Source of the DNA: Cyanophora paradoxa CCMP329
Taxonomy: Eukaryota; Plantae; Glaucophyta
Direction of reading: 5' to 3'
NCBI GenBank assembly: GCA_004431415.1
Contig: QPMI01000427.1
Location: 1 to 64,000, forward strand
DNA length: 64,000 bases
In this document: positions 2,841 through 35,793 of the stretch, piece after piece
How positions within the stretch are numbered: position 1 is the first letter of the stretch
Layout: every line of letters starts with the position of its first letter
Notes under the pieces: model-generated
The model's database searches: none
Told to the model about the DNA's origin: nothing
The model's input: only the letters and a program-made list of their open reading frames with translations
Program-made: the position numbers and the translations under genes

Positions 2841-2930
2841 ACAAAACAGAATCGATTCTAATACTGATTGAATTTCTTATTTTTTAAAAACCTTACTGTA
2901 AATGGTTTGTGTGACAGCTGTGACACCTTT

Positions 2931-3050
2931 TTAATTGAGTGTGACGCTGTGACGCCTGTGACGCCTACTTTCAAACTTTTTAAAATTTCAAAAATCTACA
3001 AACCTCTGAAAACAGGTGTCACAGGCGTCACAGGCGTCACACCCAATTAA
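2931..3050. repeat. Iteron-containing inverted repeat (candidate replication origin of element A)
   Basis: Arms ttaattgagtgtgacgctgtgacgcctgtgacgcctactttca (2931-2973) and its near-perfect reverse complement (3007-3050), each with three TGTGACGCC-type units. Lies about 90 bp after the helicase stop. Confidence 0.8.
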
Positions 3051-3191
3051 CCACAGACTCCCCCTGTGGGTCGATGACTTTTTCGATTCTTTATCGGACA
3101 ATATAAAAACGTATCGTAAATCGGTGTGTTTTGACAAAAATTGACTGGCGATTTAAGGATCATTGCGTTTTCCCTTTGACTTTGACAGAAC

Positions 3192-3383
3192 ATGGATTAT
3201 TTCGACGAAATTCAGCGGCAGCTGGTCGAAAAGAATGATATTGCAGAGGTAGCGGAATATATTGCAAAGATCAGAGCCAGTAATGGTAGACCATATCAAA
3301 AGAAGCGATTCCATGCAAGCAGACTTGACACAGTAAATGTATATGTCCCCAAAGGCACGAATGTGCGAATCATTAGAACCTGA
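3192..3383 (+). CDS. Small hypothetical protein (63 aa)
   Basis: ORF between the palindrome and polB, preceded by AAAATTGA (3137-3144) and ATTTAAGG. Occupies the same slot as the small ORFs at 14527-15182 in element B. Confidence 0.5.
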   Translation: MDYFDEIQRQLVEKNDIAEVAEYIAKIRASNGRPYQKKRFHASRLDTVNVYVPKGTNVRIIRT

Positions 3384-3439
3384 AAAATGCGAAATGCGTT
3401 CAAATTGCCCAAAAATAATATGTTCCCTTAAAGTAAAAG

Positions 3440-6400
3440 ATGCCCCGCCAATCCAATAGAATCATCAAAGAGAAGAAAAACGAAATACTCGGTCTTTTAG
3501 GAACCCTTTTAGTCACTGGTGATATTACAGAATTTGAATATGATCGCCAGGCAGCAGTCTTGGACAGAAGACCAAGATTATCTCAACTCACAGAAATTAC
3601 AAATCGCCTCTATGATCGTTTTGAGAAAATGGAGGAATTCAGGGATGAAGGTTTAAGGTTGGGAACAATTGAACCCGAGATTGAAGATGGGGAAGCCATG
3701 AACAAAGCATATTCCTGGTTAACCTATCGAGCCAGAGGGGAGGTTATCCAAGATGGGATTGAATTCTTGGAGAGAATTGCACCTACTCTACCTCAGAGAC
3801 TCAGACAGAAACTCCAAGACCTGAGAGCAATTAAAACTCGGTTGACCTTCATTTGTAAATTCACCAAAGTGAGTGATCCCAGGGTGTGGATCACGAAATT
3901 CATTTACAGTGATTACTTTGTCATCACAAGATCACGAAATATTGATGTTGAACTGCGAAATGCCCTTCAATCCATGCAGGAGCAGATGATGCAGGTGGAC
4001 AGTTACAGACTGGATCGCATTGAGATGCTGAGAGTGGTAATAATGTCTTATGCTCCTGTGGGTGGTTGCTTCTTCTCAACACCTGAGTGGATTGGATCAA
4101 AGAGAGCAACTGTGAATGTGAAGAATATTGATGGTCAAGACTGCTTCAAGTATGCAATCTTGGCTTACCTGCACCGAAATGATATTAATAAACACAAGAG
4201 CAATGAACCCAGCCAGTATAGAAGATGGTTAAACGAACTCAATTTCGAAGGCATCCAGTTTCCAGTTGCCTGTGATGCAGAGGTTATTGATCGATTTGAG
4301 GAGCAGAACCCTGAACTGAGTATCAACATTTATGGTGCAGATAATCAAGCACAGTGTTTCTATCCTCTCCATCAATCCAGCAACCCCAGGAGAAAGACCA
4401 AGATTAACCTTTTATTAATCGAAAACGAAGAGGATGATAGAGGGCATTATATCACCATCATGTCTCTGAGTAGACTTCTGAAAACCACCTTTGATAAAGC
4501 CCATGATGGTCGCATTTATTACTGTGAGACCTGTCTGTCTCGTTTCAGAACTCAGGAGAAGCTGGATGTTCATATAGAAGCGAATCGCTGCATTGATTGG
4601 AGGGAGAGCAAAGGTAAATGCCCGAAATCTGGAAGTCACATTGCATTTGGGCTTCAACACCTTCGCAAAACTGTGTGGCTTCCCACTATCTGCTATGTAA
4701 AAATGGACAGTCACTCGGTTCCAATTGATGAGAACCGCAGTAAAAGAGAGGTCAAATCGGTTTCTTTAACAGTTGTGATGGGGGATAAGGTGATCTCTCA
4801 TTATTTCGAGGGATCAGATCCACTTGGTGCTCTGTTTACCACTCTCACAGAGATCAGACCCCAAGTAATCCGCACTCTATTCACCAATATTCCAATGCAC
4901 CCACTCACAGAGGAGCAGAAAGCACAATACAAGATCACTAAACACTGTTATATCTGTGCTGAACGATTTACCCATGAGAATTTCCCAGTGAGAGACCACT
5001 GTCATCAATCAGGAGCATTTATTGGGAAAGCATGCCGAAATTGCAACCTCCACAGGAGAATCTCAAAGCAAACCAAGGTAGCAATTGTGGTGGATCACAT
5101 GGATGAATGTGGACACGAAATATTCCGCAAAATTGCACAGCAAGATGATAAACTTCGTGTTGAGATCCTGAGCAAGAATTTCGACCAATACCTCTCCCTG
5201 CAATGGGGCATGTGGAAATTCATAGATGCTTCGCACTTCATGGACTTCCAGGCAGTGGATGCAAGTGATCTAATGGGTAAATTCCAGACTTTCCGAGAAT
5301 TGGCGTTCTCACAATATGGATTGGATCCTGCTCATTATGTTTCGGCTCCTGGATTATCCTGGGATGCAATGCTAATTTATACCAGAGCAAAGATTGAGCA
5401 GATCAGTGATGTAGGGCAATACGAATTTATTGAGAGGGCAATTCGAGGTGGGTTTGCTACAATGCCTACTCGATATGCAAAGGTGGAAAACCCAGATGAC
5501 CATATAGTTCTCTTGGATGCAAATAATCTGTATGGTTATGCTCTCAGTCAAGAACTGCCCACTGGCGATTTTCGGTGGGAAGATGTCACAGAGGCACTTA
5601 AAGAGACCCCTGGACGAAGTGCCTTTATTGAAGTAGACCTGGAATACCCACAAACTCTCACAGATCATTACGATTTTCCACTTGTAGTGAATAAAGAACA
5701 AATCACCACCGAAATGCTGGGTGAGTATCAACGAAAACTACTGGATATCACAGGTGAGAAGATAAGCAAAGACCCCAAACTCACAGCAACATTCACACCC
5801 AAAAACAACTATGTGATCTCCCAACCTCTCTTGGTCTATCTTGTGAGCAAAGGTATTATAATTAAGAAGGTTCACAGGGTTCTCTCATTTGCAACCTCTG
5901 CATTCATGAAGAGTTATATTGATCTAAATACGAAACTGAGGCGCCAATCTATGTCCAGATTCGAGAGTGACTTCTTTAAGTTAATGAACAATGCAATCTA
6001 TGGTAAATGCCTCGAATCATGCAGGGGTCGATCTGTGGTGAAGATTGCTAATAGTGAGAAACTCTGCAAGAAATATGCTGCAAGTCCACTCATCAAGGCG
6101 ACCAATGTATTAAACGAAAATGCTGTTGCCTTTGAGATGTATTCCAAGCATGTTCACTTAGATAAACCAGTTGCAATTGGGGCTTTTGTGCTGGATTTTG
6201 CGAAACTCCATAATAGCAGGTTCTTTTATGATGTGGTGAGGAGAACTTGGGAAACAGCAGAGCTACTATTCCATGATACAGATTCTTTCTGTCTACTGCT
6301 GCATACCAATGATCTAAATAATGAGATGAAGCGAATTTCTGAACACCTGGATTGCAGTAATTATGATCCTGCTCACCCTCTCTTTGATAGGAGCAATCGT

Positions 6401-6721
6401 TTGATTCCAGGTAAATATAAAAACGAGTTTCCCAATGCAAAGATTGTGGAGTATGTAGGTCTGAGATCGAAACTCTATGCTTTCAGAACTGAGACCTTTG
6501 ACAAAATAAAAATGTCTGGAACCTCCTCAAAAGAGGTTTACTTTGATGATTTCAAGAGATGCCTGTTTGAAGGCATCACCAAAACAGTAGCAGTAGTAAA
6601 CAAGCGAAGGCAAGACCACAACCTATATGATTTGGAGAGCAGAAGGGTGGCTCTAAACCAACTCGATAGCAAAAGGAAGATATTAGACGATGGAATTCAC
6701 AGCATTCCATTTGGGCTCTAA
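3440..6721 (+). CDS. polB: Protein-primed family B DNA polymerase (Polinton/PLV type; TP-vOTU-ZnF-EndoVII-like insertion-Pol)
   Basis: Intact 1093-aa ORF. Pol motifs LLDANNLYGYAL, KLMNNAIYGK, FHDTDS, GLRSKLYAF; OTU-like DCFKYAI...GHY; C2H2 YCETCL...H; EndoVII-like CYIC...VRDHCH..G.....C..CN. Confidence 0.95.
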   Translation: MPRQSNRIIKEKKNEILGLLGTLLVTGDITEFEYDRQAAVLDRRPRLSQLTEITNRLYDRFEKMEEFRDEGLRLGTIEPEIEDGEAMNKAYSWLTYRARGEVIQDGIEFLERIAPTLPQRLRQKLQDLRAIKTRLTFICKFTKVSDPRVWITKFIYSDYFVITRSRNIDVELRNALQSMQEQMMQVDSYRLDRIEMLRVVIMSYAPVGGCFFSTPEWIGSKRATVNVKNIDGQDCFKYAILAYLHRNDINKHKSNEPSQYRRWLNELNFEGIQFPVACDAEVIDRFEEQNPELSINIYGADNQAQCFYPLHQSSNPRRKTKINLLLIENEEDDRGHYITIMSLSRLLKTTFDKAHDGRIYYCETCLSRFRTQEKLDVHIEANRCIDWRESKGKCPKSGSHIAFGLQHLRKTVWLPTICYVKMDSHSVPIDENRSKREVKSVSLTVVMGDKVISHYFEGSDPLGALFTTLTEIRPQVIRTLFTNIPMHPLTEEQKAQYKITKHCYICAERFTHENFPVRDHCHQSGAFIGKACRNCNLHRRISKQTKVAIVVDHMDECGHEIFRKIAQQDDKLRVEILSKNFDQYLSLQWGMWKFIDASHFMDFQAVDASDLMGKFQTFRELAFSQYGLDPAHYVSAPGLSWDAMLIYTRAKIEQISDVGQYEFIERAIRGGFATMPTRYAKVENPDDHIVLLDANNLYGYALSQELPTGDFRWEDVTEALKETPGRSAFIEVDLEYPQTLTDHYDFPLVVNKEQITTEMLGEYQRKLLDITGEKISKDPKLTATFTPKNNYVISQPLLVYLVSKGIIIKKVHRVLSFATSAFMKSYIDLNTKLRRQSMSRFESDFFKLMNNAIYGKCLESCRGRSVVKIANSEKLCKKYAASPLIKATNVLNENAVAFEMYSKHVHLDKPVAIGAFVLDFAKLHNSRFFYDVVRRTWETAELLFHDTDSFCLLLHTNDLNNEMKRISEHLDCSNYDPAHPLFDRSNRLIPGKYKNEFPNAKIVEYVGLRSKLYAFRTETFDKIKMSGTSSKEVYFDDFKRCLFEGITKTVAVVNKRRQDHNLYDLESRRVALNQLDSKRKILDDGIHSIPFGL

Positions 6722-6904
6722 TCTACTTCATTGATCTTTCTTTTTCTTTGGTTTCGCTCTCCAAGAAGTAACAAACCGCGAATTAAATGCAGCAGCCATA
6801 TACATCTTAATCCTGGATCATTGGGCTCAATTGCAAAGTAGTTGGGAATTGTGTTCTCCTTCCACACAGAGTCTTGCATTTATTATATGAGAGATAAGGT
6901 AAAG

Positions 6905-7525
6905 ATGCCTTCTACACAAATAGGATTGAGACAACCACCAAGAATTGTGAGAAAAGAGGCAATTGAAGATCGAGGGAATATTCTGCCCATCACAGTTCCA
7001 GTGGAGGAGAAGAGCAGTCGAATATTGAAAAGATCAGAGATGGTCAAGCAATTAATCCCAGAGACCCTCCCAGCTGAGACAGCACCAAAAGAGTCGAAGA
7101 TTGCTAAGAAGTTCTATGATCCCAGGACAGGCTACAAGGGATTTACTGCAATGAGACAGGAACTACCAGAGGAGAACTACAAGAAGATGAGAGAGTGGTA
7201 TGATAAGCAGGAGGTCGTCCAGATTAATGCACCCACCCTATCTCGAAAAAGAGATCCCATGATTCCAATTAGGCAACCCCTTGATACCTATGTGATTGAT
7301 CTGCTCTTCTTTCCTGCATACAAAAAGCAGAATGATGGTTATGATACATTTATGAGTGCAATGGAATCAACCCTGAGAACAGGGTTCATAATTCCAATGA
7401 GAGACAAAAGTGCTCTCACTGCTCTTGCAGCATTCAAGCAACTTGAACAGAGAGTCCCCAGACCAATTGTTCGCATTCAGAGTGACAGTGGAAGCGAGTT
7501 TACCAATGTGTTATTAGAAGAAGTG
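6905..7525 (+). pseudogene. rve (DDE) integrase, 3'-truncated
   Basis: Homologous to 8800-10242 (FYDPRTGYKG, QEVVQINAP, YVIDLLFFP, IQSDSGSEF). Similarity stops just after the second catalytic Asp, where the terminal repeat of element B begins; the catalytic Glu is missing. Confidence 0.9.
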
Positions 7526-7829
7526 GAAAACTACACATTTAATACCAAAACTACGCAACTACGCAACTTTCTGAAAAAGTTTGAGAGTAGGGGGGGAAAA
7601 AAATTAGAAAAGTGAAAAAGTTGCGTAGTTGCGTAGTTTTGGTATTAAAAGCGTAGTTTGCGGTATTAATTTGCGTAGTTTAACATAGGTAGTTGAGTAG
7701 TTTAAAGTAGTTTTTATTAATTATAAAGTAGTTTATTATTTATCTTATTGTTATCAGTCTGAGACTCTATGAAAATCGATTGACCTTAGTGTGAAACAGT
7801 GCGCCCCGCCCACTATGCAAGATACATGC
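7526..7829 (+). repeat. Left terminal inverted repeat (probably truncated on its outer side)
   Basis: Reverse complement of 30735-31038 by visual alignment (gaaaactacacatttaataccaaaac...cactatgcaagatacatgc). Confidence 0.92.
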
Positions 7830-8139
7830 ACACTACGTACATGCGAGTTCTATGAAAACAATAACGATTTAGTCATGTATATATTTCGTATATATGTCCG
7901 ACCCTCCGTGTGTGTGATCCCGCACAACTTTGACTTTTTTAGTTGTTTTTTGGCTTTTCCGCATATGACGACATATACATATATATACCGGCGTCACCGA
8001 CATATTCGGCGTCATCGCATTGCGGCGAGTCCGAAAACGTATAGCATGCCACAAAGTAGTTTTTTATGTGTTTTTCGATCGATCGACCAATCGCGGATGT
8101 GAACCGACTGTTTTATTTTATTTAATTTATCATTCATGG

Positions 8140-8225
8140 GTGACAGGGGGGATACCGGTTAAGGTGACAGAACGTGACAGGGGGGATACCGGTTAAGGTG
8201 ACAGAACGTGACAGGGGGGATACCG
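8140..8225 (+). repeat. 34-bp tandem repeat (2.5 copies)
   Basis: gtgacaggggggataccggttaaggtgacagaac units start at 8140, 8174 and 8208. Confidence 0.9.
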
Positions 8226-8378
8226 TAAAGGTGGCATTTTGTGGACATTTGTGGACATCGGGGCTACCGGGTTTGTGGTCATTTTGTGGACAAATTGCGA
8301 ACAAAAACTTGAATGCATATATATGTGTATATGACTGACCAGCCGCTGAGCGACTGACCGGCTTGCAAGTTGCAATTT

Positions 8379-8432
8379 CCCGAGTTCCGAGTCCCGAGTC
8401 CCGAGTCCCGAGTCCCGAGTCCCGAGTCCCGA
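8379..8432 (+). repeat. Heptamer tandem repeat (CCCGAGT)n
   Basis: About 7 consecutive CCCGAGT units. Confidence 0.9.
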
Positions 8433-8799
8433 CTCGATAACACCGGCGATCGCGACTCGGCGGCGACCCCCCCTCTCGTTATCCGGGCGTAACTTTTGAC
8501 AGCAAGCCGATCTCGGCGCGCTCTCAATTGCTACGTGCTCGTAACTTGCTTCCGGGCATGTTGGTGCTAGTTTGACTAGCTTAGTCGCCGGGCGCGCAAA
8601 ACCCCAGTTCGACATATTGACGGGTGCCAAAAACCGAGGTGTCCCCTACGTCGTGCGCGCCGGCGCGCGTTCTCGTGCGTTTCCACTAGTCATACTTTGC
8701 ATCCGCGCGCGTATAGAGTAGTTCTACACTACTACAAAGCGGCGCGGTCTGATTCGCAAAGCGCGCGATTTGGCGGCTACGAAAGCACCGCGGCGCCTA

Positions 8800-10242
8800 C
8801 TACTTGCGTGGTCTCAGAGTCGCTTTTCGATCGCCATTAGCTACCGGCGCTACCGTTGCTACTTTTCTACTACTTCTTAATGTAGCTTTGGTTTCCGGCG
8901 CTTTGTAGCTCTCAGTTTGATTAGAGAACGACTTATACCATCGTTGGCTATTCACTCCGCCGGACAGCTTAGGCTCGGCGGCTGTTACTAGCCGCTGTAA
9001 TTCTTTATTTACTCGTTTCTCTTTTTGCACGCGATCCTCTAATAGAGTGCCTTGCGGCACAGTCGCGGCGGCTTCTATGCCCTCTCTACGCAATTGCGCA
9101 TCGACGCGCGCCTCGTCCTTTGCCGCCTCTAATGCATCTACTGTGGGCGCCATTAGGTAATCGACCGCCTGAACCGGTAAAAGCTCGTGGAAGGCAAAGC
9201 GACCCTCTACGCGATTGCCGTCCGGATCAGTTAGCATAAACTTATAGCCCTCGCGCGCGGCGACAGTATATACGATTCGGCTCCAATTGTTACCGCCCTT
9301 AGCGAATGGCGTCTTCTCGATGCGTAGCCTTACTGACATGCCCGGCTGAATCTGATCCAAATAAGCTATCGATTTCTTGAATTTCGCATCTTCTTTTTGC
9401 ACTATAAGCTTATAGTGACTCTCGTTGGTCTCGGCGGGCATATAGCCGGTCGCAGAGTGCACCGTATTATTATAATTATATTCCAGAGACGAAAGGACAT
9501 CTATAAATCGCGCCGTATTATTCGCGATGCAGTAGCTCGTGATCAGCCGCCGCATTTGCTTGTTAAATGCTTCTATGCGCCCTTGCGCGCGATGGTCGGC
9601 TGTGTCCGCTATCTGATGCTCGATAAACTGATTCTCGAAATATTTGCGCATAATATCATTGCGGAATTCGCTTCCCGCATCGCTTTGCACTTTGAAAATT
9701 GGTCTCGGCGCCTTATTTTGCAGCTGTATAAAGGCGGCTAAGGTCGACGCCGCGGACTTATCCCGCATCGGGATAATGAACCCGACCCGTAATGTGTTCT
9801 CCATAGCCGTGAGAAAAGCACTGTAATTATCATTATACTTCGAGTAAGCGGGAAAGAATAGCAGATCAATTACGTAGGTATCGAGAGGCTGTCGGATCGG
9901 TATAGCCGGGTCTCGTTTGCGGGATAGGTGCGGCGCATTAATCTGAACGACCTCTTGCCGGCTATACCACTCTTGCAATTTCTTATAATTCTCGTCGGGC
10001 AGCTCTTGCCGTAGCTTAGTGATCCCTTTGAAACCGGTTTGCGGATCGTAGAATTTACGCGCGATTTTCGATTCCTCCGGGACAGCAAGGGCTACGGGCA
10101 CGTCGCGGGGCACCAAAGCCTTTAAATCAGACCGCTTTACTATGCGGCTCTCTTTATTCTCTTTGGGCACGGGGATCGGCAATGTGCTCCCCTCTAAATC
10201 TTGCGATCGTCTTACTATTGGCGGTCTTGACATCCTTGTCAT
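8800..10242 (-). CDS. rve (DDE) integrase, Polinton type
   Basis: Triad YVIDL / QSDAGSEF / GRIEAFNK; YNNTVHSATGYMPA; C-terminal SH3-like PGMSVRLR...FAKG..NWSRIVYTV...GRFAFHELLPV; basic tail. Start chosen by homology with copy A. Confidence 0.93.
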   Translation of the reverse strand: MTRMSRPPIVRRSQDLEGSTLPIPVPKENKESRIVKRSDLKALVPRDVPVALAVPEESKIARKFYDPQTGFKGITKLRQELPDENYKKLQEWYSRQEVVQINAPHLSRKRDPAIPIRQPLDTYVIDLLFFPAYSKYNDNYSAFLTAMENTLRVGFIIPMRDKSAASTLAAFIQLQNKAPRPIFKVQSDAGSEFRNDIMRKYFENQFIEHQIADTADHRAQGRIEAFNKQMRRLITSYCIANNTARFIDVLSSLEYNYNNTVHSATGYMPAETNESHYKLIVQKEDAKFKKSIAYLDQIQPGMSVRLRIEKTPFAKGGNNWSRIVYTVAAREGYKFMLTDPDGNRVEGRFAFHELLPVQAVDYLMAPTVDALEAAKDEARVDAQLRREGIEAAATVPQGTLLEDRVQKEKRVNKELQRLVTAAEPKLSGGVNSQRWYKSFSNQTESYKAPETKATLRSSRKVATVAPVANGDRKATLRPRK

Positions 10243-10305
10243 CAGACAATAAAAAAGATCAATGTAACATTTTACATGCAAGAGGCAATAGAAGGTTTTG
10301 TTTGT

Positions 10306-10962
10306 TTACGGTAAATCGGGGCGGAAGATCTTCACAACGATGCTGTTTCTATCGTATGTAAACCACCCATTATGCTTGTCCCACGATGCCCCGTTTTCCT
10401 TTAAGAATTTGCGCAAGGTAGCCCGAGATTTAATCGTCAAACCATGCTTTTCGAAATTGGGATACGATTGTGTAAGGTCTCTCGGCGGCACATCCAAATA
10501 AACGCGGCGCATTGCTTCCTGACGTTCACGATTGCGATTCATTTCTAACTTCCGAGACTGAGCACGAATTATTGCGAAAAGAAGGTCTTGTGAATTTCCA
10601 TTAATTCCAGATCCTTCAAAGACTTTGATAGGGTCAATTACTTCCACAAAATCGGCAGCAGTTACGTTGGGGTCTTCTTCAAATAACTCCCTTCTCTCCT
10701 CGTGTGGTATTTCCGGATACGTAAACCAGAAGAAGCGATTGTCGACCATCCCATACATCCTATTGGGGTTTGCAGGAAAATACCCGATCATAGAGAAATT
10801 TAAGTTCTGAACATCCATCATACCGACAAGACGGACAATCGCATTAATTCGCTCATTACTCAATCCGAGAAAGTTAGCAAAGACGGGGTTGCCTTCGATT
10901 GGAATGCTCATTATAGCGCGGTGGCGCCCGCGGTCTTCATCGCCTTCAAATGCGTTGTCCAT
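10306..10962 (-). CDS. Hypothetical protein with C-terminal DUF5710-like motif
   Basis: 218-aa ORF ending VYLDVP...LKENGASWDKHNGWFTY, resembling the 'L.Vp...K..GA.WD....W' module of viral and plasmid replication proteins. Has its own copy of the upstream promoter motif. Confidence 0.6.
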   Translation of the reverse strand: MDNAFEGDEDRGRHRAIMSIPIEGNPVFANFLGLSNERINAIVRLVGMMDVQNLNFSMIGYFPANPNRMYGMVDNRFFWFTYPEIPHEERRELFEEDPNVTAADFVEVIDPIKVFEGSGINGNSQDLLFAIIRAQSRKLEMNRNRERQEAMRRVYLDVPPRDLTQSYPNFEKHGLTIKSRATLRKFLKENGASWDKHNGWFTYDRNSIVVKIFRPDLP

Positions 10963-11240
10963 TGTCGCCTTTTACTTTAAGCTGAGAAAATATTTTCCTG
11001 TTGCCTAAATGTAGCGCGTTCTCCTTAAATCATTTTGCGTTGCCCACGGGCTTTCAATTTTTACCGCGATTACAGATAAATGGACGCCCCAGTATGGGAC
11101 GCGCACCCGATCCCTAATTACTTTTTAATCGACCCGGACGACCCCGGATTAAAGTGCATATGGCTTCTCCATATCCTAAGGCGACAGCTCCTTCAATTAG
11201 AGCGCAAACCAAGAAAAAGAACGCACGATAAGATAGACGA

Positions 11241-14200
11241 CTAACAGCCGAATGGAAGGCTATGTATGCCGTCGCCTGATATGCAGCGCTTGCTATCGAA
11301 TTGGGTCAGCGCTATCCGCTTGCTCTCCAAATCATATAAGTGGTGGCATCGCCGTTGCTTGTTTACTACTGTTACTGTTTTTGTGATCCCGTCAAATAGG
11401 CAGCGCTTAAAGTCGTCGAAATGCACCTCTTTCGAGGCTGTCCCGCTCATTTTTACCTTGTCGTAGCTCTCAGTGCGGAAAGCATATAGCTTCGGTCGCA
11501 GCCCCACATACTCCACTATCTTGACGTCGGGCATCTCATTTTTATATTTACCGGGAACCATCCGGTTCTCGGGACTATAAGGGCAGTCTAAATGAGGGCT
11601 GATCGCTCGCATGCCCGCTTCCAGATCCGCGGTCTCTATATACAGACAGAACGAGTCAGTATCGTGGAACAGCAGCTGAGCTTGCGACCAGGTGGGACGG
11701 ATCACGTCGTAAAAGAAGCTATAATTATGCAGCTTCGCGGCATCCAGCACATAAGCGCCAATAGCAACCGGTTTATCGAGTTTTACGTGTTTACTATACA
11801 TTTCGAATGCAACAGCGCTTTCGTTTAATACATTCGTCGCTTTTACCAGCGGGCTCGCCGCATATTTCTTAAACAGCTTAGTGCTGTTCGCGATCTTTAC
11901 CACGGAGCGCCCGCGACACGATTCCAGGCATTTACCGTAAATAGCATTGTTCATTAATTTAAAGAAGTCGCTCTCGAATTTATTCCGGGCTTCCTTTCGC
12001 AGCTTCGTGTTCAGATCTATATAGGGCTTCATAAATGCAGCGGTTGCAAACGAGAGCACCCGGTGGATCTTAGTAACTACAATCCCCTTTTTTACCATAT
12101 AGAGCAGCATCGGCTGAGAGACCACGTAATTATATTTCGGAGTAAACGAGGCGATCAGCTTCGGATCTTTACTGAGCTTCTCGCCGCTAATCTCCAAAAG
12201 CCCACGCTGATATTTGCCGAGCATGTCCGCAGTAATTACCTCTTTACTCACGATCAGCGGGAAATCGCGATGGTCAGCCTTTAAATAGTCCGGATACGCA
12301 AGGTCGACCTCTATAAATGCACTCCGCCCTACAACCTCGGTAAAAGCTGTGCTTGTGTCGTCCCAGCGATAGTCCCCGACCGGTAAAGGCTGACTGAGCG
12401 CATAGCCATATAGGTTATTCGCATCCAATAGCACTATATGTTTATTCTCGCTATTAGCCTCGGCATATCGTGTGGGCATGGTCGCAAAGCCGCCCCTAAT
12501 TGCCCGCTCAATAAATTCGTATTGATCCGCATCGCTGATCTGTTCTATCGCGACCCTCGTATGCTTTAACATCGCGTCCCACGATAGTCCCGGTGCGCTC
12601 ACATAATGAGTCGGATCCAGACCGTATTGCTCATGGGCGAGCATACTGAATTTACCGAATTTTACCATGAGATCATTAACATCGGACGCCTGAAAATCCA
12701 TGAAATTCGAGGCGTCTATAAACTTGTAAAGTCCCCACTGTAAAGAGAGATACTCATCGAAATTCTTACTTAGGATCTCGACCCGCAGCTTGTCGTCTTG
12801 CTGTGCGATTTTCCTGAATATAGCATGCCCGCACTCGTCCATCCTATCAATGACCACGGCTACTTTCGTTTGCTTTGAGATCCTCCTATGTAAATTGCAT
12901 TTTCGGCAAGCTTTCCCTATATAATCGCCGCTTTGGTGACAGTGATCGCGCACAGGGAAGTTTTCGTGGGTAAACCGCTGATTGCATATATAGCAGTGTT
13001 TGGTGATTTTATAGGCTTGCTTTTGCGCCTCTGTGAGCGGAATCATAGGTGTATTAGTAAATAGTGTATTAAGCATCTCGCGGCACAGATCGCCTAACGT
13101 GGTAAACATCTGTCCCAGCGGATCCACGCCCTCGAATTCGTGATTTTCAACATGAGAGCCCATAACAACATTAAGTGCCACCGACTTTACCTCTCGCTTG
13201 GTTCTATTTGGTTCATTAGGAACCGGCACCGACTCCATTTCTACCTTGCAGTAACAGACAGTAGGAAGCCACACCATTTTCCTTAGGTGTTGCAGTCCGA
13301 AAGTAATAAAGCTTCCGGGCTCCGGGCATTTACCTTTACTCAGCCGCCAATCGATACAGCGATTAGAGTCGGTGTGGCTATCGAGTTTCTCCTGTGATCG
13401 GAACCGGGACAAGCAGGTTTCGCAGTAGAAAATGCGCCCGTCGTTTGCTTTATCAAAGGTGGTCTTTAAGAGGCGGCTCAGTGACATAATCGTAATATAG
13501 TGACCCTGTCCGTTTGCGTCCTCGATCAGCAGCAGGTTTACCTTCGATTTACGACGCGGATTACTTGACATGTGCAGTGGGTAAAAGGTTTGGGTCGCAT
13601 TGTCGGCGCCATATATATTAATTGACAGCTCGGGATTATTGTCCTCGAAACGATCGATTATTTGGGCATCGCAAGCCACCGGGAAAGTAATGCCTGAGAA
13701 GTCCAGCTCAGTCATCCACCGCCTATATTGGAACGGATCATTACGTTTGTGTCTGTTTATGTCGTTTCTGTGCAGCCATGCGAGGATAGCGTAATTAAAA
13801 CAGTCGTGACCATCGATATTCTTAATATTTACTGTGGCTCGCTTTAATCCAATCCATTCGGGGGTCTCAATGTAGCAGCCGCCCATCGGCGCATATGACA
13901 AAACGGCGACATGTAGCTTATCTAATTTACTGAGCCGGTAGCTGTCGACCTGTATCATCTGTTCATTCATTTGCTGAGCTACACCCACTAACTCAGTGAG
14001 AATATTGCGCGACCTTGTGATTACGAAATAATCGCTGTAAATGTGTTTAGTGATAAAAACGTTAGGATCACTCACTTTTACGTATCGGCAGATGAAAGTA
14101 AGGCGCACCTTAATAGCTTTAAGCTCGTCCAGCCTCTCTTTCAGCCGCCCAGGCAGATTTGCAGCGATGGTAGTGAGAAATTCCACCGGATCTAAGATTA

Positions 14201-14504
14201 TCTGTTCATCCGCCTTATAGCTATACCAGGCGTATGCTTTATTCATTGCGAAACCGTCGTCCTCATCGGGTTCTATGACGGCTAAGCGCCGCCCTTCGGT
14301 ATAGAAGCGCTCCACATTTTCCAGGCGATTGTAGAGCTCGTCGGCAATATTCGCAAGGTTAGCTAAGCGGGGTTTTCGATCTAAGATCGCCGCCCTCCGA
14401 TCGTATTCGGCTTCGGTGATCTCCCCAGTGACTAAAAGACTACCTAACAAGCCTAATATTTCGTCCTTTTTCTCTTTTATAAGGCGATTAGTTTGGCGGG
14501 GCAT
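11241..14504 (-). CDS. polB: Protein-primed family B DNA polymerase
   Basis: Intact 1087-aa ORF co-linear with 3440-6721: LLDANNLYGYAL, KLMNNAIYGK, FHDTDS, GLRPKLYAF, and the same OTU-like, ZnF and EndoVII-like segments. Confidence 0.95.
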   Translation of the reverse strand: MPRQTNRLIKEKKDEILGLLGSLLVTGEITEAEYDRRAAILDRKPRLANLANIADELYNRLENVERFYTEGRRLAVIEPDEDDGFAMNKAYAWYSYKADEQIILDPVEFLTTIAANLPGRLKERLDELKAIKVRLTFICRYVKVSDPNVFITKHIYSDYFVITRSRNILTELVGVAQQMNEQMIQVDSYRLSKLDKLHVAVLSYAPMGGCYIETPEWIGLKRATVNIKNIDGHDCFNYAILAWLHRNDINRHKRNDPFQYRRWMTELDFSGITFPVACDAQIIDRFEDNNPELSINIYGADNATQTFYPLHMSSNPRRKSKVNLLLIEDANGQGHYITIMSLSRLLKTTFDKANDGRIFYCETCLSRFRSQEKLDSHTDSNRCIDWRLSKGKCPEPGSFITFGLQHLRKMVWLPTVCYCKVEMESVPVPNEPNRTKREVKSVALNVVMGSHVENHEFEGVDPLGQMFTTLGDLCREMLNTLFTNTPMIPLTEAQKQAYKITKHCYICNQRFTHENFPVRDHCHQSGDYIGKACRKCNLHRRISKQTKVAVVIDRMDECGHAIFRKIAQQDDKLRVEILSKNFDEYLSLQWGLYKFIDASNFMDFQASDVNDLMVKFGKFSMLAHEQYGLDPTHYVSAPGLSWDAMLKHTRVAIEQISDADQYEFIERAIRGGFATMPTRYAEANSENKHIVLLDANNLYGYALSQPLPVGDYRWDDTSTAFTEVVGRSAFIEVDLAYPDYLKADHRDFPLIVSKEVITADMLGKYQRGLLEISGEKLSKDPKLIASFTPKYNYVVSQPMLLYMVKKGIVVTKIHRVLSFATAAFMKPYIDLNTKLRKEARNKFESDFFKLMNNAIYGKCLESCRGRSVVKIANSTKLFKKYAASPLVKATNVLNESAVAFEMYSKHVKLDKPVAIGAYVLDAAKLHNYSFFYDVIRPTWSQAQLLFHDTDSFCLYIETADLEAGMRAISPHLDCPYSPENRMVPGKYKNEMPDVKIVEYVGLRPKLYAFRTESYDKVKMSGTASKEVHFDDFKRCLFDGITKTVTVVNKQRRCHHLYDLESKRIALTQFDSKRCISGDGIHSLPFGC

Positions 14505-14526
14505 CTTTTACTCTAAGGGAACATTT

Positions 14527-14823
14527 TTATTTCTCATTTTCGGCGCGTTTCGCAAGTTTCTGTTGGAGTCTAAGCCTAGCAACTCCTCGCGAATGATTCT
14601 TCTTCGCACAGTGTATGAAGTGATCTGAATCAAATGCGATAGAATTTACAAACTTATCTACTCGTTTCTGAAAGCGTCTCTTTGAGAAATTGGACTGATT
14701 TAGCTGATTTTCATTCATGCTATTCATAGAACACCCAGCCTTTGTTACATTGGTCGTTACGGTTTCGATGTCCAGAAAGACGTCGGGACAGGCTTTGGTA
14801 TACGCCTCCGGATAGGTCGCCAT
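14527..14823 (-). CDS. Small hypothetical protein (98 aa)
   Basis: ATG-initiated ORF packed directly upstream of polB on the same strand; no recognisable motif. Confidence 0.5.
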   Translation of the reverse strand: MATYPEAYTKACPDVFLDIETVTTNVTKAGCSMNSMNENQLNQSNFSKRRFQKRVDKFVNSIAFDSDHFIHCAKKNHSRGVARLRLQQKLAKRAENEK

Positions 14824-14885
14824 GTTTCTTAGTGTGTATTAGTGTGGTTCTGTGTCTGAAAATAATTTTTCCCGATGATCAAATT

Positions 14886-15182
14886 TTACGGACTTTGTAT
14901 GGTGCGCCCCGACAAATTTTTCCCAGCGAGCTTACTGACGCTCCTGACCGAGAGCTTTACGTTTTCGGGCAGCTCTATAACAAGTTGTATATCGCCCGAT
15001 TTGATGACATGGGTGCGGGTTCTTTTACCACGGCAATTCGGGTAGTAACCGAATATTCGCCTGAAAAGATCCTGTGTGGCTTCAATATCCATGGTCGCGG
15101 TTTGAGTGATCTCGTCCGCAGTCAGGGCGTGCGTATAGGTCGGTCTGATAGCGGTCATTGTGTTGTCAGTATATACAATCAA
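14886..15182 (-). CDS. Small hypothetical protein
   Basis: ORF co-oriented with its neighbours, preceded by AAAATTTGA and TATAAG-like motifs; the start may be the ATG at 15158. Confidence 0.45.
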   Translation of the reverse strand: MIVYTDNTMTAIRPTYTHALTADEITQTATMDIEATQDLFRRIFGYYPNCRGKRTRTHVIKSGDIQLVIELPENVKLSVRSVSKLAGKNLSGRTIQSP

Positions 15183-15330
15183 AGGTAGGCTTATATACCT
15201 TTGTCAAATTTTGAGAATGGCACGATATATAGTATACAAAATAATAAACTACTTAATTAATATAATAAACTACATGAAACTACTTGACTTTCCTTGCAAA
15301 ACTACGCAACTTGAAACCAAAACTACGCAC

Positions 15331-15441
15331 TTAATACCAAAACTACGCAACTACGCAACTTTTGCGCTTTTCAGAATTTTTGCCGCCCCGACCTTCAAAC
15401 CTTTTGCAGAAAGTTGCGTAGTTGCGTAGTTTTGGTATTAA
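15331..15441. repeat. Iteron-containing inverted repeat (candidate internal replication origin of element B)
   Basis: Perfect 32-bp arms ttaataccaaaactacgcaactacgcaacttt (15331-15362) and aaagttgcgtagttgcgtagttttggtattaa (15410-15441). Further AACTAC(GC) units occur at 15248-15330 and 15442-15515. Lies about 90 bp after the helicase stop. Confidence 0.85.
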
Positions 15442-15533
15442 ATGCGTAGTTTCCGGTATTAAATTGCGTAGCTTCGCTATGTAGTCGCGTAGTTACTAAA
15501 AACTGATGTAGTTAATGATTGTTTGGATGTCGT

Positions 15534-17948
15534 TTACGCTTCTATATCGTCCTCATCTTCGTCTTCGAACTGTGTCTTGGCGATCTTAGTGAGCCCCTTA
15601 TAAACTCGCTTCGACTTCCCTTTAATTGTCGTCACAGTCGATTCAATCTTGAATGTTTCGAGCACTTTGTTACTGATAGTGCGAGTGGTAACCTTTGTCT
15701 TGATATCGTAGCTTCGCATCATTTCCGCGCAAGCTTTGAATACCTCATCACAGGCAACATGGGCACCCTTTTCCTCTGACAGCTTGTAGTTTTCGCGCAG
15801 ATAGGAACCCAACTTATCGCTGTCGTCGAGATATTTGGCGCTATGCTCGATGACAGATTGCGGCGGGTTTTGCAGGATCTCTTTTACTTTGCCAGTAGCG
15901 AGCATATCGATGAGAATCTGAATATTTGCCCGCTTGTATTCATTTTTCTCGTCGCCCTCAAACATTTCCATGAGAGTTTCGTCCGCTTTCTTCTCTCCGG
16001 CTTTGGGATTAGGTGAGTAAACAGAGCGGAATGGGATCGATCGGAACCGACGCTTAATAGCTTTGTCGGGCTTTTCGATTTCCAGATTATTGTTGCACAG
16101 GATCACCATAGTAAACCGAGGCTTGAAATCAATAGGATCCTTGAAAAGTCCTCGGGCTGTGCAGAGCTCGCCACCTGTCAGTGTCTTCATCATACCGCAT
16201 AGAAGCTTGTCGCCATCATTAGGTTCGTTTGCATGGGTGAGCCGGACACCTTGCTTATTAGCAAGCTCGGGAATCGGGCTATTTGCTTTGTGGACTTGTG
16301 TGAGCAAAGTAATGCTAATCGGGCGAGCATAATCGCCGAATGTCTCTTGCATAAACGTTTCAATCACACTCTTTCCATTAGCACCGACACCTGTGAATAG
16401 ATAGAACGTTTGCAGGTCGGTTTTACCTGTGAGTGCATATGCATAGAGGCTGATCAGGTAATTGTAGAGTTCCATATCTCCGCCACAGATATCCAAATAA
16501 ATGTCTTTCAGCCTTTTAACCTTTGCCTCATCAACTTCCTCGCAGTAATCAAAGCCGACAGTCTTGCTCACCATATCTTCCGTCGTCCCCTTGCGGAAAG
16601 TCATATTATTTAGATCAAACACGCCATTAGTAAACCCCACAATATTGGGAACTGTGTCCAGAGTCGCCATAAAGTCATCGTCTTGTAGCTGTGTGATAAT
16701 ATGCGGTTCCAGCGACTTTTGATACGGTGTATTCTGAATCCTCTTGTGAATTGCCAGCAACATATTGGCGCTCTTCTCAGCCTTTTCCTTCACAAGGTCG
16801 TCTCCACTCGCCCTGAGAGCATTGGAAAGATGATGTCCCGCCCTTCTAGAAAACCATGGTGCAATGTGCTCAGGTATCTTAGAGAGTATGGACTTGTCCG
16901 TTTTATCATACTTCCAAATACCATTTTTGGAGTTAAGGTTAAACCAGACGTTATTTGAATATTTCGTGGTCGCTTTCAGGATCTTGGCGCAGATAATTGC
17001 AACAGGATAATGGGCGCCTTCAACTGAAACGGTCTTGTCAATGAGAGTATTAATTTCTAAATGGTGCTTCTCTTCCTCGGTCAGCTCTATGTTAACAGAG
17101 AACTCTTTCGGCTCGCAGTTCTCGCTATAACTCTTCACAATATACTCGTTATAATTGCCATCTCGCTTTTTCTTCACCCACCAGTTATTGGAATCGTGGG
17201 ATTCATCGCAGCAGGGGCACAGGAACCCCTTGTTAGCCGAATTGAAGTCAAAGCCCTCATCGCGGCGTGCATAGATGTTTGGGAATAGGAACCCCATGCC
17301 ACACAGTCCGGCAATAATAGCAGCTTCGGTATTATCCTTGCCTGAATTTCCCGCTTTCGGCTGTGGATTATAGACATGCTTGTAATCGTAGTTCTCGATA
17401 ATCCATTTACGGAAAGCGTCGGAGGGCTCATTAAACTTGCACGACGATGCCCACGGCTTAATTACCCAGGTCTTGTTAGGGCTTGGGCATACATTGAGAA
17501 TTCCAGAGGTGCCAGTGCCAGTGATGGTTTTGAGGTCGACCTTCTTGTATCCATTAAACGCCGGTGCCCGATCTATGATTTTCAGCTTATCGAACTCATC
17601 AGGGCGTCGAAAGAATACATGGTAGCCCTTTCGAGTTTTTTCGAGTGGCTGATGGGCATCGAAATCATCGGGAAACATCTCAACGAATTTCTGATACGTT
17701 TCCTCATCGTCGAAATCGACGACCATCATCGAATTCGACAGCAGAATGCCCCAATTAGTGAACTGATTGGACTTAAAGGCTTCATCATATCGTTCCCAGT
17801 TCCATTTACCGCCTTTATGTCCGTAGAAGGGCTCCTTTACCTCGTCTTTCATGGGAATAATCGTGTTTTTCGACAAGGTCTCATCGCCACGCAGCCAGTC
17901 AGCGAGCTCTTGGAGTAAAGTCTTTTGTTTCAACGTCATCTTCGCCAT
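15534..17948 (-). CDS. Primase-polymerase (AEP/PrimPol) fused to Zn-binding, D5_N and SF3 helicase domains
   Basis: WGILLSNSMMVVDFDD and EKTRKGYHVFF (AEP); CPCCDESHDSNN; GFTNGVFDL (D5_N); Walker A TGVGANGKS; ANEP; MKTLTGGELCTARGLF; LCNN; AIKRR. Confidence 0.93.
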   Translation of the reverse strand: MAKMTLKQKTLLQELADWLRGDETLSKNTIIPMKDEVKEPFYGHKGGKWNWERYDEAFKSNQFTNWGILLSNSMMVVDFDDEETYQKFVEMFPDDFDAHQPLEKTRKGYHVFFRRPDEFDKLKIIDRAPAFNGYKKVDLKTITGTGTSGILNVCPSPNKTWVIKPWASSCKFNEPSDAFRKWIIENYDYKHVYNPQPKAGNSGKDNTEAAIIAGLCGMGFLFPNIYARRDEGFDFNSANKGFLCPCCDESHDSNNWWVKKKRDGNYNEYIVKSYSENCEPKEFSVNIELTEEEKHHLEINTLIDKTVSVEGAHYPVAIICAKILKATTKYSNNVWFNLNSKNGIWKYDKTDKSILSKIPEHIAPWFSRRAGHHLSNALRASGDDLVKEKAEKSANMLLAIHKRIQNTPYQKSLEPHIITQLQDDDFMATLDTVPNIVGFTNGVFDLNNMTFRKGTTEDMVSKTVGFDYCEEVDEAKVKRLKDIYLDICGGDMELYNYLISLYAYALTGKTDLQTFYLFTGVGANGKSVIETFMQETFGDYARPISITLLTQVHKANSPIPELANKQGVRLTHANEPNDGDKLLCGMMKTLTGGELCTARGLFKDPIDFKPRFTMVILCNNNLEIEKPDKAIKRRFRSIPFRSVYSPNPKAGEKKADETLMEMFEGDEKNEYKRANIQILIDMLATGKVKEILQNPPQSVIEHSAKYLDDSDKLGSYLRENYKLSEEKGAHVACDEVFKACAEMMRSYDIKTKVTTRTISNKVLETFKIESTVTTIKGKSKRVYKGLTKIAKTQFEDEDEDDIEA

Positions 17949-19812: not shown

Positions 19813-20724
19813 TCAAAATTTACCCAATTTCTTTGCAAATTTTGGGCGGCGCTTTTCTTGGTATGCCAGCAATAGATTGGGGTCTTTAAGTAGGTCGGCT
19901 TCGATTATCCTTTTGGTGGATCGCTTTAAGGTTGCGACGTTTCCACTCACAGGTTTCGTAATATCGGTGGTTTGGGGTTGGTCGCCATTTACCGCGCCCG
20001 ACGTCGGTTTTACCGACTGTTTACCAGCGGTCTTTATGTCGTCCGCCGCTTTTTTAAAGAAGCGCTTGAATTTATATTCGTCGGGCACCGGATCCGCTTT
20101 GCCAACAGAGAATTCCAGGCTATATTTCGCATTGTTTACCACGATCACCTGATAGCTGTGACTGTATTCGGTCATCACCTTCTCGAACCAGCGCTTTTCG
20201 TATGGATTAAACTCGTCCTCGGCGCTCTCCATCTCTTTTCTATTGGGCAATGAGAACAGGAATATATATTCGGCGTTTACTCTGAGTGTCGGCGAAATTT
20301 TGGTGAGTTTTTGCGAGCAGATCCAGCAGCTCACAAACAGATGGCGTCCAGCCGTGAAAATACGATTTAGTATAGGCTCACCCTTTCCCGCCATCGATAA
20401 ACTCGGATTATCAATAAAATCGTCCAGCACAATTAACAGGTTACCGACTTTCTCCTTTTTCTTGATCCTCTCCTTGCGTTTCTCTATTATATTGTCGATC
20501 AGCTTATGGTCGAAATCCTCATACAGATACGATGTGACATTGTCGTATTGATGATTCCAGATCGTGGAGGCGAATATCATCACCGAATCGATCTTGTCCT
20601 CGTTGTGGTAAAGCAGGTATTTCAAAAAGACTGACTTCCCAGTCGCGGTTTTACCTACAAACAGTGCGCGACATGGAAACTCTAAGCTTCCCGGGTCAAA
20701 CTCACTCAGATCTTGTATATCCAT
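19813..20724 (-). CDS. A32-like (FtsK/HerA family) genome packaging ATPase
   Basis: Walker A LFVGKTATGKS, Walker B LLIVLDDF, GRHLFVSCWICSQ, PTLRVNAEY. Likely start MDIQDL at 20724. Confidence 0.93.
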   Translation of the reverse strand: MDIQDLSEFDPGSLEFPCRALFVGKTATGKSVFLKYLLYHNEDKIDSVMIFASTIWNHQYDNVTSYLYEDFDHKLIDNIIEKRKERIKKKEKVGNLLIVLDDFIDNPSLSMAGKGEPILNRIFTAGRHLFVSCWICSQKLTKISPTLRVNAEYIFLFSLPNRKEMESAEDEFNPYEKRWFEKVMTEYSHSYQVIVVNNAKYSLEFSVGKADPVPDEYKFKRFFKKAADDIKTAGKQSVKPTSGAVNGDQPQTTDITKPVSGNVATLKRSTKRIIEADLLKDPNLLLAYQEKRRPKFAKKLGKF

Positions 20725-20770
20725 TTCCCTTATAAGAAACATATAAAAATTACGAAACGCGACAGCCCGA

Positions 20771-22219
20771 TTAAGCGCTGATGCGAGACAAGCCGTTGGC
20801 ATTCATTACAAGAATATTGTGGCAGTAAGCCGAGATCTGAACACCGACCTTTGTCCAGGTGGCGAGGGGTGTGCCATTGGGTGTGAGGATTAGGAAGCTC
20901 GACGCTGATTGCGTTAGATCGACGTAGCCAGTCGCCTTCTCACCTTTGAGTGCCGCTTTACCATCGAGAGCAAAGCAGAAGCCAGTGTAAATGGGGCGCT
21001 TGTTGCTATCGATCCAGTTAGTCATCTTGAATTTATCGGCGAGCTCCATAGCCGCGGATTGCAGCGGGACACCAGTGTTAGAATATAGGTAATTGTTGTT
21101 ATTTAGAACTTGCATCACGACATTATCATCGAAGGCAAGGGTGCGGACAGTAGAGTGCCCTCCTTTATTATCGCCGAGTGTGTTTTCGTCGCGAACCTTG
21201 ACAACAAGTGCGTAAACAAGTCCAGAAATTTGAGATAGCGACAGGCGGAGACCAGAGCCGAGAGCAAGACCGGTATAATCCGCAAACTGAATATCAGTGT
21301 AGGGGATGGCGATGCCAGAGGTCTTAACACGAGTAATGATTTCGCCCATCGTTTCCTCATCGATGTTAACAGCGTCCATAACAATACGAGGGGTCGTCAT
21401 TTCCAGATTCGCAAGTGCAGGTGTAGGTGTGAGAGCCGCACTATCGAAAATCGCAGTGGCACCCGAGTGAGCTAAGGTCTTAATATTTCCGAAAGCAGCC
21501 GCTTGAGCAAGCGTTGTCTCGCCATCAGTAGAATTGGTCGCAGTAATTGCAGCAGCGTTATTCTGAGCGTAAACGCCAGGAACCGCCGCAGTTTCGAGCA
21601 GCGCAGGGGTTTGGAAATATACTTCGACCGCGATTTCGGATGGGAGCGCACCGATGGGCACGCCAGCATCGAGGAAGCTCGGAATTCGCATGGTAAAAAT
21701 GCCGCCAGCTTGGTTGCCGCCCTCTACCTTCGGTCCGAGATGCAGCCCATGCTTGCGCTTCTTTTGGTCGAATTCAGCCGGAGTGTTAGCCAGGAAAGCG
21801 TAATCTACCAGGCGCTCAGCCGGAATAATTTGCTCATACGACCCGTATTTAATGCTGACTCGCTGAACAAACGAGCCAGGAAGCCCGCGGACGAATCCAG
21901 TGTTGAATAGATCAGCCGAGCAGTCAGCAGAGGTCTTGGCGATGGCAGTTAGCGCCTTCGCCGACGGGATGGTAACTTGGAGGCTAATACCATTGCACCA
22001 ATTGTAGCGAGGGAGATAGAAGACCACACGAGTGGTAGCACCAGTAGAGGAGAACAGATTGCCGGGATCCGCAATTGGGAGCACCTCCACACGAGAAGGC
22101 TTGAATTGTTTGTCCACACCCACGATAAATCCGCGATCCAAAAGCATGCTCTTGTAATCCTCCGGGGTTTCGAGGACGGATTTGAGCGTGAGGCGGCTAA
22201 GCGAGGTCGTGGGATCCAT
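20771..22219 (-). CDS. Probable double jelly-roll major capsid protein
   Basis: 482 aa, beta-rich, next to the ATPase. Strand patterns VVFYLPR..ISLQVTIP, FVQRVSIKYG, RIPSF...PIGAL..IAVEVYF, GYVDL and C-terminal ISAYCHNILVMNANG are typical of DJR MCPs. Confidence 0.8.
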   Translation of the reverse strand: MDPTTSLSRLTLKSVLETPEDYKSMLLDRGFIVGVDKQFKPSRVEVLPIADPGNLFSSTGATTRVVFYLPRYNWCNGISLQVTIPSAKALTAIAKTSADCSADLFNTGFVRGLPGSFVQRVSIKYGSYEQIIPAERLVDYAFLANTPAEFDQKKRKHGLHLGPKVEGGNQAGGIFTMRIPSFLDAGVPIGALPSEIAVEVYFQTPALLETAAVPGVYAQNNAAAITATNSTDGETTLAQAAAFGNIKTLAHSGATAIFDSAALTPTPALANLEMTTPRIVMDAVNIDEETMGEIITRVKTSGIAIPYTDIQFADYTGLALGSGLRLSLSQISGLVYALVVKVRDENTLGDNKGGHSTVRTLAFDDNVVMQVLNNNNYLYSNTGVPLQSAAMELADKFKMTNWIDSNKRPIYTGFCFALDGKAALKGEKATGYVDLTQSASSFLILTPNGTPLATWTKVGVQISAYCHNILVMNANGLSRISA

Positions 22220-22252
22220 ATTTCGTTTTTATCTTCCGCTGAGAAATTTATT

Positions 22253-23539: not shown

Positions 23540-23566
23540 TTTATTCTTTATTAATAGGAAATAAAA

Positions 23567-27500: not shown

Positions 27501-27878
27501 GTCGATCCAGGACTGATAGTTATTGCTGTGGTTGTGCCTGTTATTACTTTATTCGGGGGTATACTTGCATACAAATTTCGGGCTTTATGTTGTGCATGTT
27601 GTGATCGGGTCATTGCAGGTGCAGGGAATAAATATTCGGCACCAGAGATGAATGTGACCCAAACAGCCGAAGGAGATGTGGGGTTAGAGGTGAGGTCAGC
27701 CGAGGGGAATGGTCTAAGTGTTGTGAGAACTGATCAACCACCAGCAAGTAGGGCAGCACCCAAAAAATCGCGAGCAGAACGAAGGGCTGAATCAATAATA
27801 AAAGATAATGCAGACTTTATGGCGGAAATGGCACAGCGAGAGGGCAGAACATACGAGCTTCTCCCGATGCGACCTTAA
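24560..27878 (+). CDS. Large fibre/spike-like protein with C-terminal transmembrane segment (5' part frameshifted; main ORF 25116-27878)
   Basis: SN/CN-type repeats and Thr/Asn-rich beta segments (FTFETPFVSPPTI...ISWKATG), a Pro/Asn linker, hydrophobic GLIVIAVVVPVITLFGGILAY, then CCACC. The reading frame is open upstream of 25116 to about 24975; 24560-24823 may be the true N-terminus or a separate gene. Confidence 0.7.
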
Positions 27879-27907
27879 TTTTTGTAGAATGCCTTAATAG
27901 AGAAATA

Positions 27908-29370: not shown

Positions 29371-29391
29371 TAAGTAAAGAACAATCAAAAG

Positions 29392-30687: not shown

Positions 30688-30734
30688 AGAGAGATGGGTT
30701 TATTGTTATTTTTCATAGATCATGCATAAGAAAG

Positions 30735-31038: not shown

Positions 31039-31122
31039 GGTATTAAAAGCGATCAGATTGCGTAGTTTTCATGCGTAGTTAATTACAGTCGCGTAGTTTC
31101 AGTGCGTAGCCGCTCAGTTTCA

Positions 31123-31200
31123 GTGCGAAACTAATGCATTTAAGTGCGAAACTCACACATTTACGTGCGAAACTCATGCATTTACGTGCGAAACTGATGC
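31123..31200 (+). repeat. 21-bp tandem repeat (about 4 copies)
   Basis: GTGCGAAACTnATGCATTTAm units start at 31123, 31144, 31165 and 31186. Confidence 0.85.
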
Positions 31201-35718: not shown

Positions 35719-35793
35719 TGCAAGGTATGGTTAGAAGCATGAGAGTGTGCGCTCGATTGCATTTATAATTATTTGACACTAGTTTGGGGACAG

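Follow-up and report, generated by a model that had tools for sequence, protein, structure and literature searches.

Facing arrays of element-specific units behind the primase-helicases of two Polinton-like elements in Cyanophora paradoxa are candidate helicase-bound origins

The first 31.6 kb of a 64,000-nucleotide stretch of the Cyanophora paradoxa CCMP329 assembly (contig QPMI01000427.1, positions 1 to 64,000, hereafter the window) hold two related Polinton-like elements, A on the forward and B on the reverse strand, lying head to head. Each carries, just behind its primase-helicase gene, an array of short tandem units that face each other across a spacer of 47 bp. The units differ between the two elements, and in B the array stands in three places, behind the helicase and in both terminal repeats, with its units kept intact between internal and terminal copies. 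We consider it probable that the arrays are iterons bound by the helicase of the element itself, making up an origin or helicase-loading site of the type known from staphylococcal pathogenicity islands (SaPIs) and phage P4, used internally and near both ends.

A first-pass annotation of this DNA had reported an inverted repeat behind each helicase, and both are there: in A and in B, the best inverted-repeat score was matched in none of 200 dinucleotide shuffles. Both arrays are larger than had been described. The internal array of B (15239-15513) has 43-nt arms (15320-15362 and 15410-15452) that are 98% complementary, set within a wider series of seven AACTAC units (15247-15349) and seven reverse units (15418-15508, one mismatched), which are spaced 8 bp apart centrally and 10 or 20-22 bp outside, with an AT-rich outer flank. 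In A (array 2910-3050; arms 2931-2966 and 3013-3050), inner TGTGAC units at 2940, 2948 and 2957 on the forward strand face GTCAC at 3018, 3027 and 3036, and two outer units at 2911 and 2920, previously missed, bring the array to five TGTGAC-core units facing three over a spacer that is 77% AT against 58% for the element. A distance of about 90 bp from the helicase stop is right for B (92 bp). In A, whose helicase gene is frameshifted, the distance is ambiguous: 59 bp in the window's frame (stop 2869-2871) or 90 bp from a TAA at 2838-2840. Contigs of four public sequencing runs of one organism indicate that A-type and B-type elements are multi-copy families. At the A array (window 3050), the contigs of all four runs carry further GTCAC units beyond it, in two runs at a spacing of ~21 bp with TTAA, a hint that A-type elements also own extended array copies of the terminal type.

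Between the elements, the units had been described as wholly replaced, which stands in large part: the two arrays align no better than chance (32 of 300 shuffles were as good), and the hexamer of A is absent from the B array and that of B from the A array. ACGC is nevertheless common to the inner units of both, in the same orientation. Meanwhile, PolB and integrase remain close (73% and 64% identity) and the helicase has diverged to 53, 36, 44, 41 and 29% by domain, with A read with X at its breaks. An 18-nt similarity between the spacers of the A and B copies was also seen (E 0.05), in opposite orientation relative to the gene.

The two further copies of the B array, at 7526-7741 and 30823-31214, belong to terminal repeats that share a perfect 304-bp inverted duplication (7526-7829 and 30735-31038); the right copy extends past the duplicated part and the left is truncated. 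Internal and terminal arrays are 83.6% identical over 226 nt and have only the unit block in common. Within it, the unit bases, with units defined on the internal copy, are unchanged at 60 of 60 positions, against 129 of 164 for the remaining bases. The B units are thus selectively conserved between internal and terminal copies. This holds also in the outer part of the array (unit bases 24/24, other bases 37/57; p 4e-4), where arm-to-arm conversion is not the cause because those units lie outside the paired arms. The same result bears on the idea of a structural origin, a stem-loop or cruciform in which the units would be by-products of slippage and arm-to-arm conversion. Predicted folds are very stable (z -11 and -13 for the A and B palindromes, -11 to -16 overall), and the archaeal plasmid pRN1, whose replication protein has the same Prim-Pol, SF3 (superfamily 3) and winged-helix parts, needs a 100-nt stem-loop downstream of its gene (PMC4234260), with neither iterons nor specific binding found there (PMC2777425). 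A stem-loop could form here too, yet conserved units at helical spacing extend far outside the paired arms, and several of the relatives described below have short arms around unpaired gaps of 60-90 bp; we therefore regard a purely structural origin as unlikely.

Since the B array is also part of the B terminal repeats, it is not simply an internal origin. The earlier proposal of an internal origin in addition to the ends thus keeps its internal site and loses the separation from the ends. The terminal copies invite a different explanation, in which the block serves as a signal for the ends, recognised by integrase, terminal protein or packaging machinery. The internal copy would then be what remains of a former end, after a transpoviron-like PolB-integrase module (7526-15513, bracketed by inverted copies) had fused to a helicase-capsid module. 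Two of the three B copies do lie in terminal repeats, PolB and integrase are enclosed by the left and internal copies, which are inverted relative to each other, and repeats other than terminal inverted repeats are reported to bracket one replicase set in multi-replicase genomes (bioRxiv 10.64898/2026.10.13.758929). Such a relic would sit uneasily with an internal copy that has only the unit block of the terminal repeat and whose units are conserved, with no decay. Moreover, A has its array at the equivalent internal place, the units differ far more between A and B than do integrase and PolB, and in relatives arrays stand behind helicases whose examined flanking DNA holds neither PolB nor integrase. 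We give the end-signal explanation a small chance, slightly above that of the structural one.

Transcript 3'-end formation by RNA hairpins, which the first-pass annotation had named as its alternative, is the least probable of the explanations considered. In its favour, each of the three B copies follows a gene and strong RNA folds are predicted. In mimivirus, hairpin-type 3'-end signals stand behind most genes (the hairpin rule). Here the terminator reading is weakened because 20 of 21 genes lack a comparable repeat in the 300 bp past the stop, a count in which, for one gene, the terminal array begins within 300 bp and is incompletely covered; loops of ~47 nt and phased outer units would also be superfluous for a hairpin. 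Only marginally better placed, and still improbable, is the suggestion that the arrays are operators for a regulator of the PolB block, either the small open reading frame (ORF) that lies ~80 bp (B) or ~140 bp (A) downstream of the array or the helicase acting on its neighbours. The small ORF is diverged like the units (22% identity between A and B), but the ORF of neither element matches a DNA-binding family or any other family, no homologue of it was found near the relatives' arrays, and the terminal B copies do not precede it.

The protein expected to bind the units is the helicase, whose C-terminus had been proposed to hold a winged helix, and the structure prediction agrees. An AlphaFold model of B helicase residues 417-804, built on a 96-sequence alignment, has a mean pLDDT (predicted local distance difference test score) of 94. 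In it, residues 713-790 (15579-15812, reverse strand) match the DNA-binding domain of RFX (1dp7; Z 11.6, root-mean-square deviation 1.9, 75 residues aligned) and the origin-binding domain of P4 (1ka8; Z 8.0, deviation 2.4, 78 aligned), and the C-terminus is predicted to be a winged helix of the RFX/P4 type. The whole model matches vaccinia D5, SaPI5 PriRep and African swine fever virus (ASFV) C962R at Z 25-28 (26.1 for SaPI5 PriRep, 7ola).

Among known systems, phage P4 shares the predicted winged helix, and the several separated arrays per genome seen here resemble its ori1 and crr. The P4 primase is of the DnaG type and its crr contains direct repeats, whereas these elements have a Prim-Pol (archaeo-eukaryotic primase, AEP) and palindromic copies. 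In SaPI origins, rep is directly followed by 6-12 short iterons, two or more on either side of an AT-rich central region and in opposite directions, to which a C-terminal winged helix binds (PMC9371898); in SaPI5, iterons L2-L4 are 7 nt long and separated by AA, and successive wings read them at a 9-bp period (bioRxiv 10.64898/2026.10.17.759575). The 5 + 3 units of A and the 7 + 7 of B agree with this pattern of number, facing sides and opposite directions, as does the position after the gene, so that the SaPI-like geometry first suggested is borne out. Like SaPI5 PriRep, the proteins are fused primase-helicases with a C-terminal winged helix, predicted from the B model, and the facing units behind the gene have an inner period of ~9 bp and are specific to the element. 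Unlike SaPI5, the setting is a eukaryotic virus-like element with PolB, rve integrase and packaging ATPase, and the array is also in terminal repeats; the spacer measures 47 bp rather than about 100 and is not AT-rich in the internal copy of B, and binding here is putative. The likeness to SaPIs and other phage-inducible chromosomal islands is one of working and not of membership: these are not bacterial phage satellites with an att-site integrase. The pRN1 protein ORF904 has the same order of Prim-Pol, D5_N, SF3 and winged helix, with a palindrome just downstream of its gene (PMC4234260, PMC2777425). In the elements, however, the tandem units are the conserved part and lie in part outside the paired arms, whereas for pRN1 neither iterons nor specific binding has been recognised.

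For Polinton-like viruses (PLVs), inverted repeats beside the primase-helicase have already been proposed as an origin, the 'replicative end module' (PMC11296320); that case has a tyrosine recombinase and no iterons are described for it, whereas here there are internal and terminal copies, element-specific units and a PolB. Palindromes at virophage and PLV termini have been read as priming hairpins, in a preprint that calls the replication start of most PLVs unknown (bioRxiv 10.64898/2026.07.28.741278). We found no description of iteron arrays in PLVs in the literature covered, subscription journals and preprint supplements lying outside that coverage; the papers listed as pairing iterons with polintons concern prokaryotic elements, and passages of PMC12220804, PMC8547959 and bioRxiv 10.1101/2022.07.28.501842 describe no such origin. 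The present case stands apart in three respects: one host carries a matched pair with different units, the arrays occur together with PolB, and a single block recurs at internal and terminal sites.

Under the helicase-bound origin that we favour, the facing units would be binding sites for the predicted winged helix of the element's own helicase. One hexamer might dock per side through successive winged helices, matching the unit period of 8-9 bp, followed by melting of the A/T-tract spacer or of the AT-rich outer flank, priming by the Prim-Pol domain, and extension by the element's PolB or by the helicase's own polymerase. In B, helicase would be loaded close to both ends as well, there perhaps assisting terminal protein-primed synthesis, and the internal copy would be one of three sites. 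Were this to hold, eukaryotic PLVs, some of which carry both a protein-primed polymerase and a primase-helicase, would share the iteron-origin logic of bacterial satellites, and the terminal repeats would hold helicase-loading sites. A bolder extension, possible but doubtful, is that these are two-replicon viruses, made of a protein-primed PolB-integrase module and a satellite-like helicase-capsid module, with one helicase-specific iteron block at every module border. Direct copies at 15.2 and 30.8 kb could then release a 15.6-kb one-origin helicase-capsid circle, while inverted copies bracket a 7.9-kb PolB-integrase unit, and co-resident families might keep replication private by joint change of iteron and wing, at internal and terminal sites at once, like plasmid incompatibility groups. 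The locus offers a natural matched pair, with different units, an intact helicase, a defined 78-residue domain and defined sites, making cross-binding directly testable.

The arrays recur beyond C. paradoxa, as the first-pass annotation had expected of palindromes beside related helicases, in a minority of relatives. Scanning for the Prim-Pol motif yielded 64 metagenome and 3 viral loci (L089 was dropped as a duplicate of L155), of which 14, 13 of them distinct, had a full-length closed homologue and downstream DNA. An array detector found facing tandem arrays within 600 bp after the helicase in 4 of the 13, each with different units (L094 GTGAGT, L125 TGGTAC, L144 AGTACC, L153 GTGGTC), against hits at 1/75 giant-virus D5 genes and 5/506 other ORFs (Fisher p 0.0014 and 3e-5); a 400-bp window with no cut-off gave L093 (weak), L094, L125 and L153 against 1/76 and 3/65 controls. 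Across relatives, units repeat every 8-10 bp on the inside, and 61-93 bp separate the innermost ones; the period is 9 bp in A, L125, L144, L153 and L127, and 8 bp in B. L127 has its array upstream of the helicase, and L121 and L145 have similar arrays by eye only. No arrays were found in 8 genes with the same Prim-Pol and a different C-terminal part, nor in 8 partial PolB loci without this helicase. L125 and L144 have a wing motif and a GTACC core in common despite loci of 57% and 26% GC.

Several results weigh against a helicase-bound origin. The cut-off and window of the detector were chosen after viewing the sequences, which qualifies its contrast with the controls. By the detector, 9 of the 13 relatives have no array within 600 bp, and in L090, L109, L120, L134 and L155 no array was found; of these, L090 is 48% identical to the array-bearing L153, and L120 has the closest winged helix to L144 and lacks an array in the DNA examined. 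The match of L125 and L144 is confounded by kinship, the two falling in an unresolved group of a 17-helicase tree in which the array-bearing rows are largely unresolved. Neither capsid nor PolB genes were found in the flanking DNA examined around the 13 relatives, so that they may not be PLVs. A winged helix is a general feature of D5-type helicases: the alignments of vaccinia D5 and ASFV C962R extend to the end of the model, and the fold is not diagnostic because these and SaPI5 PriRep match alike. No preferential binding was seen for the pRN1 protein, which has the same domains (PMC2777425). The internal spacer of B is 51% AT (terminal copies 65%) in an element of 55%, hence not AT-rich, and, as set out above, the terminal copies permit an end-signal view. 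Finally, the C-termini are, as had been pointed out, the most diverged part of the two helicases (29%, against 41% for the motor and 36-53% for the other parts in general), which had been taken as a sign of co-evolution with the iterons. That argument falls, because giant-virus D5 proteins without arrays diverge equally: the C-terminal stretch lies below motor conservation in 96 of 96 pairs (median identity 31.5% against 48.5%), and in 58 more distant pairs the values are 27.5% and 43%, a difference normal for the family.

Other matches to the scans are recorded here for completeness. The sole giant-virus match, L061, was rejected as a counterpart; its perfect palindrome with 52-bp arms and tandem units (4281-4399) lies behind a D5 gene cut short just before it and is probably an insertion. 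In L127, the facing ATCCCAAAA-type arrays, with a 9-bp period, are placed ~850 bp ahead of the helicase start, a tyrosine-recombinase-like gene lying on their other side. Tandem duplication of the array is seen in L125 (+174 to +290 and +634 to +790 past the stop codon) and L153 (+20 to +500), where drift in the second copy has turned GTGGTC into GTGATC in both arms. Full-length homologues were found in 0 of 12 pattern matches in GTDB, and neither close relatives of the helicase or of the capsid candidate nor a 24-nt terminal motif were found in viral contigs.

Both elements lie in the AT-richer part of the window (first 31.6 kb 40-53% GC, remainder mostly 57-82% GC), within eukaryote-type DNA and beside a retroelement of the tyrosine-recombinase type (34726-37352; reverse transcriptase, RNase H and recombinase) in GC-rich host DNA. 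Element A, whose left end is beyond the window, reads on the forward strand from a frameshifted primase-helicase (506-2871; Prim-Pol, D5/SF3 and winged helix, pieced together by tblastn against the B protein) through the array, a 63-aa small ORF (3192-3383, equivalent in position to a 90-aa ORF of B) and a protein-primed PolB (3440-6721) to an rve-type integrase (6887-7525), which is cut at 7525/7526 and corresponds to the N-terminal part of the B integrase. The frameshifts are likely copy-specific or sequencing errors, because at several of the breaks the short-read contigs of the four runs show single-base differences from the window. At 7525/7526 the integrase ends of A and B meet head to head, and a local deletion appears to have taken the end of A and the outer left terminus of B; the A integrase gene runs beyond 7525 in contigs of two of the four runs (joint 7515 to 9480).

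Element B carries the Polinton/PLV features of protein-primed PolB, rve integrase and A32-type packaging ATPase. From its left terminal-repeat remnant (7526-7829, reverse strand, a 100% inverted match to 30735-31038) follow, on the reverse strand, the rve-type integrase (8800-10242; PHROG transposase E 2e-6, rve E 0.014, below the cut-off; relatives in Polinton-type loci), PolB (11241-14504; DNA_pol_B_2 E 9e-12), two small ORFs including the 90-aa one that adjoins the internal array (14886-15158), the array, and an intact 804-aa primase-helicase (15534-17948; Prim-Pol, D5_N, SF3). A morphogenesis block (19813-24541) comprises the packaging ATPase (19813-20802; Pox_A32 E 7e-8), an unconfirmed 482-aa candidate for the major capsid protein (20771-22219) and two putative penton-like ORFs, with a weak DUF5901 match within the block; for the capsid candidate, searches of Pfam, PHROGs, PDB sequences and viral contigs gave no match. 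Next come fibre-like ORFs (25116-30414), which match H-type lectin and C1q weakly. The right terminal-repeat region (30735-31214, forward strand) has the full array, lengthened by a 21-bp repeat run (31097-31195); with the left copy truncated, a target-site duplication cannot be read. B probably ends at 31626, the edge of an AT-rich block between 28-bp perfect inverted arms (31319-31626), with host repeat from 31627; contigs join 31265-31398 over its left edge, and in three of the four runs listed other DNA lies before 31627.

Near the right terminal repeat, contig depth in run X2 rises to ~25,000 at 30716-30766 against ~1,000 alongside. In two of the four runs the contig leaves 30766 into a different tandem repeat with TATCC-type units, a hint of a third element family whose own array would follow the same conserved motif. 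Base skew tracks the direction of the genes and carries no weight here. The motif AA(A/T)TTTTCTC.GC...AAAG is common to the upstream regions of genes at 10962, 17948, 18352, 19789, 22219, 30424 and 506, and is likely the promoter of the elements. Non-coding DNA at 7830-8800 holds a 34-bp repeat with GTGACAG twice per unit (8140-8225), together with TTTGTGGAC repeats and a 7-bp TCCCGAG array (8378-8433).

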